Sequence record: PZ386951.1
Direction: 5' to 3' (one strand)
Source: a phage
DNA length: 64,000 bases
In this document: positions 4,927-40,481 of the stretch, piece by piece
Layout: each line of letters opens with the position of its first letter
How positions within the stretch are numbered: position 1 is the first letter of the stretch
Translations under genes and position numbers: made by a program
The notes under the pieces: generated by a model
What the model was told of the DNA's origin: nothing
Seen by the model: only the letters and a program-made list of their open reading frames with translations
Database searches by the model: none

Positions 4927-6127
<1,201 letters not shown>

Positions 6128-7562: not shown

Positions 7563-9150
<1,588 letters not shown>

Positions 9151-30308: not shown

Positions 30309-30461
30309 TCAATTAGCTGACTTTGTTATAATATCATCAGACGCTTGATTTGTAAACTGGTCTGTGTTATTTTCTTCAAAAATTTTTTCTACGAATTCCT
30401 TGAACGACTCACGTTCCTGAGCTACATTATGCTCGATTACCATTTCAAGATTATGACTCAT
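30309..30461 (-). CDS. possible small ORF (50 aa)
   Basis: ATGA overlap with arn stop, but contains the asiA early promoter; may be non-coding. Confidence 0.3.
   Translation of the reverse strand: MSHNLEMVIEHNVAQERESFKEFVEKIFEENNTDQFTNQASDDIITKSAN
30324..30358 (-). promoter_or_regulatory. early promoter upstream of asiA
   Basis: GTTTACA -35, TATTATAAC -10. Confidence 0.5.
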
Positions 30462-30819: not shown

Positions 30820-31038
30820 TTATGTTTTGCGACTAAATTGTTCATAGTGCTGAATTACCTCTCTTAAACATTTGCATGTGAATGAAAACTTTTTAGCTAC
30901 ACCACATTCAAATATATGTTCTCTTAAATCACGTGTATCAGTATATCCCATCTCAACAATAAAATGCCTTATTAGATTTTTATCTTTATCATTGAGAGAA
31001 TTAAAATAATCAGATTTTGAATTAATTTCCCTGGCCAA
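30820..31038 (-). CDS. hypothetical protein (72 aa)
   Basis: ORF in arn-motA interval. Confidence 0.45.
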   Translation of the reverse strand: MAREINSKSDYFNSLNDKDKNLIRHFIVEMGYTDTRDLREHIFECGVAKKFSFTCKCLREVIQHYEQFSRKT

Positions 31039-32878: not shown

Positions 32879-33028
32879 TTACTGCATGACTGTGATAACT
32901 GTCATGATAACACGTTGAATTCCGAACGCAAGAAGACCTCCTGCTACGGCTGGAACAACACCTAAACCCGCCAGTAAAATGCTACCGGATACTAATGCAG
33001 CGCTTGTAATACCAATGAATGGACTCAT
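32879..33028 (-). CDS. small hydrophobic protein (49 aa), below ORF-track cutoff
   Basis: ATGA overlap with gene 52 stop; followed by terminator. Confidence 0.5.
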   Translation of the reverse strand: MSPFIGITSAALVSGSILLAGLGVVPAVAGGLLAFGIQRVIMTVITVMQ

Positions 33029-34353
33029 TTGATTTCCTCTAAATCTTTGGTGTATTCTGTAACTACATCAGTAGTTTTCCAATATTCGTTTTCTTCTTTT
33101 TTAGCTTTAGCTTCTTCTGCAAGTTTCTTTGCTTCGTCGGAAGTCATATGAAAAATATTCATTCCGACTAGTTTATCAACATAAGAAGAATACATATCGA
33201 TTTTCGAAAGTTCTTCGGTCAGTTCTTTACGAGTTTTACCCTGTACAACAATTTCACCTGAAATTACTTTCTTAATGAAATGCGCCTTGGCAAAGGCTAA
33301 ACGAAAAGCGGACTCAGTTTCTTTAATTTTGTTATCAATTCGTTTTTGGACATAAGTTTTACGAACTTCAACAAAGTCTTTAATTAAATCAACTACGTTA
33401 TCGTAAACTTGTAGTTTTCCTTTCTCATTAATAACGGTAATATTCTGAGAACGACGCTCAATCAACCCGAAGTCTTTCATGATTTTTGCATGGCGTTCTT
33501 CTTCGTTATCGCTCAAAGAGTATTCTTTGCGGAATTTAACTTTAAAGCCAAAACCATGCTCACCACAAGCATCATCCCATGTAATGAAGCCTTTATCTTC
33601 AAGCGGGTCTAAGATTTTACTCACATAAGTTTCACGATCATACTTATACGGAATCTCGGTGATATGCATTTGAGTTCGTGAAGTAAACTTATATGTTCCA
33701 CGAATTTCATATTGCCCATCAATTTCAACGACTTCACCACGAAATTCTGGGAATTCTACCTTCGGTTTAGTTACTTTCTTTCCTTGAAGAGCTTGCAGTA
33801 CAGCTTTCTTGACAGAAGAAACACTATGAGGAAGAATGTAAGTTGCATAACCAGTTGCAATACCGGAAACACCATTAAGAAGAACAGTAGGAATAATAGG
33901 CAAATAGAAAGCAGGCGGAATGTGTTCTTTATCTTGATGTACCGGAGCATATTCAGTATCTTTATATACGTTATAGAAATTTTTACTTACACGAGCAAAA
34001 ATATAACGACTTGCCGCTGCCTTTTGGACAGTACGAGAACCGAAGTTTCCTTGACCATCTAACAGAGGAAAGTTATTATTCCAAGTGTTAGCCATCAAAG
34101 CACCTGCGTCTTGCGCAGAGTTTTCACCATGATGATACCCAAGGTCCGCTACACCACCTGCAATAGAAGCAAGTTTGTGAAACTTATCTTTATTTCCTCG
34201 TGCTAAATCAAGGGCTCGAGCAATAACAAATCGTTGAACTGGCTTAAATCCATCAATCATATTTGGAATGGCACGATTTTCAACCGTGTACATAGCATAA
34301 GCCAATGCTTCATTATCAATGATACTTTTTAAATCGCGATTATTCAGTTGCAT
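33025..34353 (-). CDS. 52: DNA topoisomerase II medium subunit gp52 (GyrA-like, 442 aa)
   Basis: 442 aa; GyrA-like cleavage/religation domain. Confidence 0.9.
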   Translation of the reverse strand: MQLNNRDLKSIIDNEALAYAMYTVENRAIPNMIDGFKPVQRFVIARALDLARGNKDKFHKLASIAGGVADLGYHHGENSAQDAGALMANTWNNNFPLLDGQGNFGSRTVQKAAASRYIFARVSKNFYNVYKDTEYAPVHQDKEHIPPAFYLPIIPTVLLNGVSGIATGYATYILPHSVSSVKKAVLQALQGKKVTKPKVEFPEFRGEVVEIDGQYEIRGTYKFTSRTQMHITEIPYKYDRETYVSKILDPLEDKGFITWDDACGEHGFGFKVKFRKEYSLSDNEEERHAKIMKDFGLIERRSQNITVINEKGKLQVYDNVVDLIKDFVEVRKTYVQKRIDNKIKETESAFRLAFAKAHFIKKVISGEIVVQGKTRKELTEELSKIDMYSSYVDKLVGMNIFHMTSDEAKKLAEEAKAKKEENEYWKTTDVVTEYTKDLEEIK

Positions 34354-34357
34354 AAAT

Positions 34358-34498
34358 TTACCATACTAGTGAATGTAGTGCCATAATAACATCAGAAATG
34401 AAAAGCACGACTTGAATTAATCCGAACATTACTCCATAATATAGTGCTACCAATAAAGTAGCAAGGGCTAGTGAATAGCCCAAGATTTTCTTAATCAT
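34358..34498 (-). CDS. small hydrophobic peptide (46 aa), below cutoff
   Basis: ATGATTAA overlap with ac stop. Confidence 0.4.
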   Translation of the reverse strand: MIKKILGYSLALATLLVALYYGVMFGLIQVVLFISDVIMALHSLVW

Positions 34499-34649
34499 TA
34501 GTAGATAACAGCACAAATGTTAAATATGCACACATACCCTGGGCTAAAGCTTGTGAAAACACACTGCTAGCATCGATACAGATAGTTAAAACACATGCTA
34601 CTATCCAACAAATAAATGAAATAACTCCTAATAATTTTGCGATATTCAT
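34491..34649 (-). CDS. ac: small membrane protein (52 aa), probable Ac (acridine sensitivity)
   Basis: hydrophobic 52-aa ORF adjacent to stp, size/position like T4 ac. Confidence 0.5.
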   Translation of the reverse strand: MNIAKLLGVISFICWIVACVLTICIDASSVFSQALAQGMCAYLTFVLLSTND

Positions 34650-34656
34650 ATTTTCC

Positions 34657-34737
34657 TCACTGGCGTCCGAAGACGCCTTTGGTTTTAAGATTGTTACGAT
34701 AGAACTGCATCACGTGTTCGTTGTGGAAATTACTCAT
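34657..34737 (-). CDS. stp: Stp peptide (26 aa), activator of host PrrC anticodon nuclease
   Basis: translation [26 protein letters not shown] matches T4 Stp as I recall it; TAATG overlap with ndd. Confidence 0.8.
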
Positions 34738-35195
34738 TAATATGCCTGTAAAACAAATTTAAAGTTATCAGCCAACATACGATTCATTTCTTCAAGCGTT
34801 TGATACTCAGAATGATGATTACGAGTAAACGCTAAAGCTAACTGTCCTTTTCCAAATCCCGTCGTCAGAGGTTTCATCTTAGAAGCAGGCAGATAAAATA
34901 CTGTGTATGGAACATTGTTATTTGCAATAGTACGTGCAAGCTGAGACCGACGTTGACGAATATGACTTAGAACTGCGCTGAATCCTTGCTTAGAACGTTG
35001 ATTACCTACATAAAATCGTGCTGACACACATGGATTACTAAATGGACGACCATCTAATTTACTTACTAAAAAGTAAAATCCAGGTTTAGATAAAATATCT
35101 TTATGCGGAGTTCCCAAAAACCACTCACCACCCTTGATTGTACCAATAACAGTAGCGCCTGCGTTGTTCAGATCAGTAACAGTCATGTATTTCAT
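34737..35195 (-). CDS. ndd: nucleoid disruption protein Ndd (152 aa from MKYM; ORF track extends to 35243)
   Basis: size and position; SD GAGG before the MKYM start. Confidence 0.7.
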
Positions 35196-35227
35196 ATTAA
35201 TTTCCTCTAAATTATTTTCTACTCCAA

Positions 35228-35249
35228 GGCCGCATGAATACATGCGGCC
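35228..35249 (-). promoter_or_regulatory. 9-bp-stem hairpin upstream of ndd
   Basis: GGCCGCATG-aata-CATGCGGCC. Confidence 0.5.
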
Positions 35250-35471: not shown

Positions 35472-35586
35472 AATTTACCTCAAGGAGTATAAAATCCGAA
35501 TGCAGTTGTTGACCATCCCATCCAATATGGAAAATTTGCACCAATGTAAAACATAAGAATATAAAACCAAATGTTTAGTAAATTCA

Positions 35587-35805
35587 TCATTTTACACCAT
35601 TCCAAATTGTTTCAACCACAGATTTTAAACCATTTTGATGAATATCCATTCCGACTACCGCCATCAAATAGATTCCAACTACAACTGAACCTAAGGCAAA
35701 AATCAGCATGAAAATGAATAAAGCCGGAAAAATATTATCGAAAAACCATTCAATAAATGTAAAAGCACTGCGTTTACGCTTCATATTTTCCTCACATAAA
35801 TCCAA
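35587..35805 (-). CDS. small membrane protein (72 aa ORF; possibly shorter from MKRKR)
   Basis: hydrophobic ORF. Confidence 0.45.
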   Translation of the reverse strand: MDLCEENMKRKRSAFTFIEWFFDNIFPALFIFMLIFALGSVVVGIYLMAVVGMDIHQNGLKSVVETIWNGVK

Positions 35806-35905
35806 AGTAAGCGTTTAATACATCAATCATTAAAACGATTGGGAATATACTCAAAACTATTAGTATTATAACTACATTCCATATAACTTTAATAATCTTT
35901 TTCAT
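35792..35905 (-). CDS. small membrane peptide (37 aa, MKKIIKV...)
   Basis: GGAGG SD right after the early promoter at 35930-35964; the 82-aa track ORF looks like an upstream over-extension. Confidence 0.4.
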   Translation of the reverse strand: MKKIIKVIWNVVIILIVLSIFPIVLMIDVLNAYFGFM

Positions 35906-35929
35906 TTTCTGTTCCTCCGTAGTTGATAG

Positions 35930-35964
35930 GGTAATAGTACCACGGAAGAACAGTCTTGTAAACA
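35930..35964 (-). promoter_or_regulatory. early promoter
   Basis: GTTTACA -35, TGG-TACTATTAC -10. Confidence 0.55.
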
Positions 35965-36148
35965 ACTTTTTTAAAAATATTCGTAATAAATGTGAATACC
36001 AATCACGACTGCCGAAACTTGCGCAACCCACCATGCACAAGCAATAAGTACAGAATTCAAAATTTTCATAATAACCTCATTACAAAAGTAAATGTTAAAC
36101 AAATTACTGGAATACTAATTAACCAAACAAAACACCACCACAATGAAC

Positions 36149-36412
36149 TCATAGTTCAATCTCAGCGATTTTCATTTCATTACTATTAATAGCCGCTTTA
36201 AGACTATCTGAAAGAATTACATCCCAATGGTCATTCATATAACCATTAACTAAACGTGTAATTTCTTCAGGAGTTGAAAAATAAGGCGTATCAGACTCCC
36301 AATGCGATAATCCTAAGCGAGTATAAATCATACCTTCATCATCGCTAGAATATTCAACTGACACAAACTCATCAGTTATTTTATGTTTAGCGTAATAAAA
36401 TTTAAATTTCAT
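36149..36412 (-). CDS. hypothetical protein (87 aa)
   Basis: ORF with early promoter at 36438-36471. Confidence 0.5.
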   Translation of the reverse strand: MKFKFYYAKHKITDEFVSVEYSSDDEGMIYTRLGLSHWESDTPYFSTPEEITRLVNGYMNDHWDVILSDSLKAAINSNEMKIAEIEL

Positions 36413-38303: not shown

Positions 38304-40481
38304 TTAGGTCGCAAGGGCCTTCATAGTTTTGGCGATTTGGGAAACTTCATCATCACTTAAAGAGTTGCGATATCCGATGAAGTCGGAAACAATACGGAAT
38401 TTCTTGGTAAACTCAGCAACCATTTTATCACTGTTTTTTGAAGCATTATTTGATAATACATCAAAAAGATTAGTTACTGTCCAGATGTCATGACCGATGG
38501 TATCTTTTCCACCGTTGAAATATACACCCTGTAATGAACTAACCATATTAGCGAGTCGTGTATATTCTTCAGAAACTTCATCTACACTGAAGTACTTCAT
38601 CATAAAATCTAACTCAGGATACTTGATAATTTTATCAATATATCGTTTAGCTGAACTTGAATAACCTACATACTTATCATAATCTACATCATCAAAAGCA
38701 TCTACATATAAATCACGCAAAGCTTCAAAAATACATTGGCACTGACCGAGTTCTTTTACCTTTTTCTGTAAAAGCGGACGAATAACATAAAATTCATTAA
38801 TGCCAATAAGATTAGCCATACGAATCAAAATATTCATAGATGGATGACAAAGAGATGTAGTACCATCCATAGAGAAAATATCAGAACGATGCATATACGC
38901 TACATAACCAGTAATTTCATCTGCTTCTGACGTAAGTGTAAATAGTTCCTCTTTTTCCCAGCGCCCGTCTTTAATTTCAAATTTAAATGCTGTAGCAGCT
39001 TTAGGACGAGGAGCTTTACTTTTAATTACCTTTGGAATATAGCTTTTAACTAAAGCTTCAATTTCTGACAAATAATGAATGTTAACTTCATCACTTTCAA
39101 ACATCGCCATAATATCAGGAAGCAAATCAATCTGCGATTCTACTTCCGGATTAATAAACAGAAGACGCTCATTGTGATGAATATTTAAAGTGTTATTAAA
39201 TTCACTATCATCTAACGCATGTGCTAATCCACGGACAATATTAACACGATTTTTAATATTATCAATAACGATATTAATTTTTGTTGTATTAATACCAAAC
39301 AGACGATAACTTGATGCAACGGCTGAAGTTTCATGACTTTGCTTAATGCGTTTCAGTCGAGGGTCAAGATTTACTTCATACACAACCCCTGCATTACATA
39401 ACTTACTATCAGGTTCAAACATACTCTGCATCTTCTTATATGACAGATTTTTAGTCGTGAATTTGACTGAATTACTAATCATATAATCTCGAGCAGAATA
39501 CCCCATCTTCATCAATTCACGATATGTATGACGGGGAGATGTAGATTCTTTAAATCGTTTTACATCTTCATTAAATGCTTTCTCACTGAGTTCTTTAACT
39601 CGTTCAATAATATTTTTACGAGTGCGATCATCTAGTGAAAGAGCCTCGCGAGATGGAGCAATATCAAGTGAACCCATTGGAAACTTAATGTAATTCACTT
39701 CATTGCGAATGCTTAGCCAGTTACGGTCTCTAATAACACCATCGATAGGATAAACAATACCGCCATAGATAGCATATAATCCGCCGCGATCTGGCCAGTA
39801 TCTTTCTGGATTTACACCGTAATAATCATCAAAATCCGGAAAATAATCAATTTCGCGGTCAAGACCATTAATGATAGCCAAATCTTTGAACGGTCGCATG
39901 ATATAAGAAACTTCATAAGCAAAGTTTCTAAAGTCTTTTTCTTCAACTGGAACTACGATTTCAATACCAGTTTTATCATCTGGACCCATTTCTTTTACGA
40001 ATGTAGGTTTAATCTGCGGACCATCGCCATCCATGTAAGCTACATAACCACGAATTTCACCTTTATGATACGAAGTAATACTAAATGTATCAGTATAACT
40101 AAACGGAGATTTAGAACCTAAACCAAATCCGCCAATGAAATCGTTAGATTCAGCCTTAGATGAACTGAAGTATGAATTATACAGCCCAGGAGAATTATCA
40201 TCACCCTGAATATCAAAATCACTCATACCCGGACCAAAATCTCGACAAACAAATCGTGGATCTAAACGTCCAGGAACTTGAATGATAAATTTTTCAGGAT
40301 TTCCATTGAGAGCATGAGCATCAATCATGTTAGTAATTAATTCACGGACTACTGCGCGAATTTTGTTTGTATACAAATCAGATGACAGAATTTTAAATAC
40401 TTTAGGAGATGCTGTGATGCTAAATGCTTTTGATTTAGAACCATTACCAAGAATTGTTTCTTTTTCAGTGGTGATAATCAT
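38304..40481 (-). CDS. rIIA: rIIA protein (725 aa)
   Basis: 725 aa; N-terminal GHKL-type ATPase-like region. Confidence 0.9.

Follow-up and report, generated by a model that had tools for sequence, protein, structure and literature searches.

The closest described counterpart of the locus considered here is the stp gene of bacteriophage T4, a gene delineated by mutations that suppress pnk- and rli- defects on prr+ hosts (PMC3014915; PMC1484252), genetic evidence that is accompanied by work with a synthetic peptide (PMC3014915). The 26-aa T4 Stp is both necessary and sufficient to activate PrrC, the latent tRNA-Lys anticodon nuclease, and it alleviates the restriction exerted by EcoprrI and EcoR124I, which are of type Ic, whereas type Ia restriction persists (PMC3014915; PMC1484252). 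Because type Ic restriction is relieved and type Ia is not, Stp is assumed to act on the restriction complex in which PrrC is masked. Loss-of-function mutations in stp cluster at residues 4–14, according to the account of Penner et al. (1995) that is cited in PMC3014915, and deletion of the last eight codons reduces activity only moderately (PMC3014915; PMC1484252). The mode of EcoprrI inhibition by Stp was still described as unknown in a 2025 review (PMC12707154). The activity of Stp becomes apparent only if the host is prr+.

T7 Ocr mimics DNA and targets type I enzymes in general. Ocr and the PARIS system appear to follow the same logic as Stp and PrrC, in that the host detects an anti-restriction protein made by the phage and responds by cutting tRNA. 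Ocr is nevertheless unrelated to Stp, a type Ic-specific peptide of 26 aa, and in the Stp system PrrC forms a physical complex with the restriction enzyme.

For ac, the gene that follows stp in T4, expression has been found to sensitize Escherichia coli to acriflavine, and T4 lacking ac is acriflavine-resistant (bioRxiv 10.1101/2025.06.30.662393). A block of AcrAB-TolC by Ac was proposed in one 2025 preprint (bioRxiv 10.1101/2025.06.30.662393), and the proposal is repeated in a 2026 PNAS paper (PMC13250531). Ac, the acridine-sensitivity determinant, is a small peptide of the inner membrane; it renders infection sensitive to acriflavine, for which blocked AcrAB-TolC efflux is the proposed reason. 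A literature search found no functional data for gp52.1, the product of the gene next to ac.

In the current study, a 64,000 nt stretch of phage DNA, referred to here as the window, was compared with T4. Over T4 160,000–168,903 the two sequences are collinear, with 95–96% nt identity, and all T4 genes of that interval were recovered in the window, other micro-ORFs included. ORFs of at least 20 aa were listed on the minus strand, and positions 34100–35100 were read directly. The minus-strand gene order is ndd-stp-ac-52.1-52, matching the order of the T4 RefSeq annotation. Positions 34200–35000 matched 564 phage records by megablast, nearly all of them Tequatrovirus, and 445 of these records were 95–99% identical to the query. 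The region 34358–34737 almost certainly holds stp, ac and 52.1 as known from T4, and the genome is that of a Tequatrovirus about 96% identical to T4. As all three genes are annotated in the T4 RefSeq record, their identification here, although correct, recovers known genes and brings no discovery.

The flanking genes also have close T4 counterparts. Upstream, ndd (34737–35195, minus strand) encodes a nucleoid disruption protein that is 98% identical to T4 Ndd and matches PF06591 (E 1.4e-95). Its reading frame remains open for 16 codons 5' of the start annotated in T4 (35196–35243), as far as an ATG at 35243, so that the product would have 168 aa from 35243 and has 152 aa from 35195. The start at 35195, which is equivalent to that of T4 and has a GAGG Shine–Dalgarno sequence ahead of it, appears the likelier of the two. 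Downstream, gene 52 (33025–34353, minus strand) encodes the medium subunit of DNA topoisomerase II, with 442 aa and 99.8% identity to T4 gp52.

Further T4 micro-ORFs of fewer than 60 aa are also conserved in the window, namely asiA.1, arn.1, motA.1, ndd.2, ndd.2a, ndd.3, ndd.4, ndd.5 and ndd.6. They lie in the regions 30312–30461, 30826–30951, 32882–33028 and 35483–36152, and encode products of 26–50 aa that are 92–100% identical to those of T4. An 87-aa ORF (36149–36412, minus strand) is present between ndd.6 and denB, within some 240 bp of sequence missing from T4. A 264-nt hypothetical gene is annotated at this position in other Tequatroviruses, such as phage PaulHMueller.

The initial annotation had read a 26-aa ORF on the minus strand as T4 Stp, and alignment bears this out. 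The stp gene (34657–34737, minus strand, ATG start) is a free-standing 26-codon ORF between ndd and ac, as in T-even phages, and its product is identical to T4 Stp (NP_049878) at all 26 residues. The peptide scores 75.3 bits against PF08133, 'Anticodon nuclease activator' (Nuclease_act; cut-off 25, E 2e-21), with residues 1–26 aligned to model positions 1–26, and it also matches PHROG 6763. It is hydrophilic and basic, and its N-proximal 18 residues are intact and identical to those of T4. In both phages stp also lies between ndd and ac, shares 1 nt with the ndd stop and contains an embedded hairpin; the two genes differ by two synonymous substitutions in the DNA and not at all at the protein level.

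The second ORF, a hydrophobic one of 52 aa previously considered a probable ac, is indeed ac (34491–34649, minus strand, ATG start). Ac is identical to T4 Ac (NP_049877) at 49 of 51 residues (96%) and is one residue longer than the 51-aa T4 protein owing to an inserted Thr, ending …LLSTND where T4 has …LLSND. This form is common to other Tequatroviruses, including PaulHMueller, whose Ac is identical to that encoded here. No Pfam family was matched by Ac; it does match PHROG 2501 (E 3.7e-25). Like T4 Ac, which shares its position and its overlap with 52.1, it is hydrophobic throughout (GRAVY 1.42). In Mosigvirus-like phages (L064:2202–2363) the ac position is occupied by an ORF for a hydrophobic 53-aa product (MVILVFIELIMAI…KTIKND). 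This gave no tblastn alignment with T4 Ac; it resembles Ac in its size, its C-terminal ND and its overlap with 52.1, and could be either a strongly diverged Ac or an analogous peptide.

The third ORF, a hydrophobic one of 46 aa that had been left unnamed, corresponds to T4 52.1 (34358–34498, minus strand, ATG start). In the mechanical ORF list this frame is extended to a TTG start at 34516. The product, a predicted membrane peptide, is hydrophobic throughout (GRAVY 1.68) and is identical to T4 gp52.1 (NP_049876) at 45 of 46 residues, the single difference being Ala to Thr at residue 14. It matches DUF7396 (PF24129; 81.9 bits, cut-off 27, E 3.5e-23) and PHROG 3595, and most likely forms a membrane hairpin of two helices. 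As in T4, 52.1 lies directly upstream of gene 52, and it is kept in this position in many more Tevenvirinae than carry stp or ac.

Substitution patterns point in the same direction for these small ORFs. Between stp and its Kagunavirus copy, 14 of 75 nt differ with one amino acid change, and between stp and a Mosigvirus-like copy four nt differ, all synonymously; dN is far below dS. Comparison of 52.1 with Mosigvirus-like copies gives dN of 0.04–0.06 and dS of 0.6–0.7 (0.039 and 0.68 for one copy), a dN/dS ratio of about 0.06–0.1 for close pairs. Judged on the T4 identities, the family matches and these comparisons, the stp, ac and 52.1 ORFs are not chance frames and are under purifying selection.

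The initial annotation described the small ORFs as all linked by overlapping stop and start codons, which is correct for two junctions only. The ndd stop and the stp start share 1 nt (TAATG), and ac and 52.1 overlap by 8 nt (ATGATTAA), with the ATG of 52.1 inside the end of ac. By comparison, 7 nt separate stp from ac (GGAAAAT, in the arrangement UGA-GGAAAAU-AUG), and there is a 4-nt gap between 52.1 and 52. Ac has its own Shine–Dalgarno sequence, GAGG, located 5 nt ahead of the ATG and overlapped by the stp stop codon (UGAGG). No recognizable Shine–Dalgarno sequence was seen in the sequence upstream of stp or of 52.1. Since these two genes lack such a sequence and overlap the stops of ndd and ac, respectively, they probably start by termination–reinitiation at those stops. 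The literature consulted had nothing relevant on small T4 proteins in ribosome profiling.

We infer from the sequence that stp, ac and 52.1 would be read from one leftward early transcript. In a scan for middle promoters, the sole MotA-box match upstream of stp was at 38445–38422, far off and beyond rIIB, and the number of sigma-70-like sites equalled that expected from shuffled sequence. No promoter was therefore assigned.

The window also encodes the tRNA repair pair, at the coordinates given in the initial annotation. The pseT/pnk gene (4927–5832, minus strand) encodes polynucleotide 5'-kinase/3'-phosphatase, with P-loop kinase (AAA_33) and HAD phosphatase (HAD_PNKP) domains and a match to the T4 Pnk structure (PDB 1LTQ, E 1.1e-189). 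Gene 63/rnlA (7563–8687, minus strand) encodes RNA ligase 1, with adenylyltransferase (RNA_lig_T4_1) and T4-specific C-terminal (T4_Rnl1_C) domains and a match to the T4 Rnl1 structure (PDB 2C5U, E 1e-250). The N terminus of Pnk, MMKK…, has one Met more than the T4 structure sequence. In addition, residues 40–90 or so of Pnk form a divergent patch with a one-residue length difference relative to that sequence.

From its 100% identity to the T4 peptide, Stp of this phage would be expected to inhibit EcoprrI and EcoR124I and to activate PrrC. The N-proximal 18 residues of Stp would bind and inhibit EcoprrI, a restriction enzyme of type Ic; where the host has a prr locus, this inhibition would unmask latent PrrC, which would then cut tRNA-Lys 5' of the wobble base. 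Pnk would heal and Rnl1 seal the cut tRNA-Lys, and because of this repair the wild-type phage would escape PrrC. The earlier description of Stp simply as the peptide that activates PrrC agrees with the literature as regards activation, but omits the step that comes before it, the inhibition of EcoprrI (PMC3014915; PMC12707154). Stp, PrrC, Pnk and Rnl1 together are a standard example of a defence triggered when restriction is inhibited, and their phage-encoded members are expected in a T4-like genome. The DNA of T-even phages is modified with glucosyl-HMC and is largely resistant to type I restriction, which calls into question what the present phage would gain from anti-restriction.

Outside the T-even phages, Stp is more widely distributed. 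A tblastn search with Stp against 50,697 phage records matched 799, many siphoviruses of 40–50 kb among them. Free-standing Stp ORFs of 25–27 codons are present in three further groups, Kagunavirus, Drexlerviridae and Swiduovirus-like phages (loci L004:2501–2581, L005:1401–1481, L006:2501–2581, L100 near 43.07 kb, and L008–L058), and the siphovirus ORFs carry no annotation at the loci read. The Kagunavirus peptide, for example that of Raoultella phage RP180, has 25 aa. In Drexlerviridae the C-terminal part follows the pattern [QHY]RIKK[IM][LI]NSTNC. The Swiduovirus-like peptide is MSNWHNEHIMQWYRRRIKAIINSYEV, and the pattern in the group of Swiduovirus-like, Salmonella D10 and Klebsiella YX3973 phages is MSNWHNEHIMQWYRRRIKAI[IT]NSYE[AV]. 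Among 16 distinct sequences from all groups, the residues M1, H5, N6, E7, H8, M10, Q11, Y13, R14 and K18 are invariant, and all ten fall within the functionally mapped N-proximal 18 residues. The siphovirus peptides exceed the PF08133 threshold over positions 1–18. A literature search found no description of Stp homologues outside the T-even phages, which is not proof that they are unreported.

The Stp core, searched as a degenerate DNA pattern (HNEH[VI]MQ[FW]Y), had no match in 185,579 bacterial and archaeal genomes (596 Gb) and 52 matches in IMG/VR. With none in 596 Gb against 52, the IMG/VR matches are homologues and not noise. A search of plasmids for the same core gave one match, at CP088689.1:40360–40434 (PLSDB), with 24 of 25 residues identical. 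This record is a 44,086 bp E. coli 'plasmid' classed as non-mobilizable; its size and its Stp variant suggest that a Kagunavirus genome was probably submitted under the label of a plasmid.

Among the Tevenvirinae, only Tequatrovirus and Mosigvirus-like loci have stp at the junction of ndd and 52. In three Mosigvirus-like ones (L051, L063 and L089) the ATG is replaced by CGG in an otherwise intact stp frame and the ndd junction is rearranged, which looks like recent inactivation of the gene.

Two proposals concerning the neighbours of Stp in siphoviruses were considered and rejected. In a mobile ndd-stp module, the protein upstream of the T1-like Stp would be an Ndd homologue, but this protein gave no Pfam match. 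Carriage of the T4 repair pair by siphoviruses with Stp was also rejected, as the 'polynucleotide kinases' annotated close to some of the stp copies contain the HAD phosphatase domain only. A tblastn search of four siphovirus genomes or loci detected neither the T4 Pnk kinase domain nor Rnl1.

The 3' end of stp also contains a C(UUCG)G hairpin (34662–34677, no strand assigned), in which GGCGUC and GACGCC form 6 bp closed by a UUCG tetraloop. It lies within codons 21–26 (GVFGRQ) and ends 2 nt ahead of the stp stop, just upstream of the ac Shine–Dalgarno sequence. The hairpin is present in the minimum free energy (MFE) and centroid folds of both strands. It is terminator-like on the plus (antisense) strand, where a T-rich tract follows it; no U tract follows it on the sense strand. 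It is invariant in all Tequatrovirus and Mosigvirus-like copies seen, and missing from Kagunavirus copies, in which the same residues are specified by different codons. An Rfam scan of the whole window gave no family match, which leaves the hairpin outside the curated RNA families.

This arrangement raises the question of whether stp might serve mainly as a leader ORF, with translation through the hairpin setting the translation of ac and 52.1 or the stability of the mRNA, and with activity against EcoprrI secondary. The hairpin occupies the last six stp codons and does not vary in T-even phages, the stp stop overlaps the ac Shine–Dalgarno sequence, and the MFE fold pairs that sequence weakly with sequence upstream. 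In the centroid fold, however, the ac Shine–Dalgarno sequence is not sequestered, and the z-score is only -2.1. Moreover, the siphovirus homologues keep the peptide with neither the hairpin nor ac as a neighbour, and the conservation pattern of stp is that of selection at the amino acid level. A leader function as the main role of stp is thus very unlikely.

Gene callers such as Prodigal report no ORFs shorter than 90 nt. The lack of an stp annotation in many records is more simply explained by a small ORF below such a size limit than by the absence of a gene. A reading of the 81-nt ndd-ac stretch as non-coding, with a conserved terminator-like hairpin and an incidental 26-codon frame, would account for the strength and invariance of the hairpin in T-even phages and for the many GenBank records with nothing or only 'terminator' at this position (in phage G2540 the hairpin is annotated as 'terminator' and the stp ORF is not called), but it has next to no credibility and is in practice already refuted by the retention of the peptide in the hairpin-less Kagunavirus copy despite 14 nt differences (one amino acid change), the ORF length of 25–27 aa held across four divergent phage groups, the lack of a U tract after the sense-strand hairpin, and the T4 genetics and synthetic peptide that define Stp (PMC3014915).

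For the locus described here, stp-ac-52.1 as T4-type peptide genes, the significance is one of annotation only. Many deposited T4-like genomes lack stp, or have its hairpin labelled as a terminator, because a 60-aa cut-off, like many existing annotations, misses the gene. More broadly, Stp could represent a widespread and almost wholly unannotated family of 25–27-aa anti-type-Ic peptides in virulent enterobacterial phages, in which anti-restriction is ancestral and PrrC activation reflects a host guard; we consider the case for and against this proposal to be evenly balanced. The failure to detect the T4 Pnk kinase domain or Rnl1 in the four siphovirus genomes or loci fits with anti-restriction as the ancestral, selected function of Stp, and the T4-like phages would then be those known to counter the PrrC guard by tRNA repair. 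The wider distribution of Stp-like peptides in siphoviruses offers a modest lead for research on anti-restriction and on type Ic enzymes.
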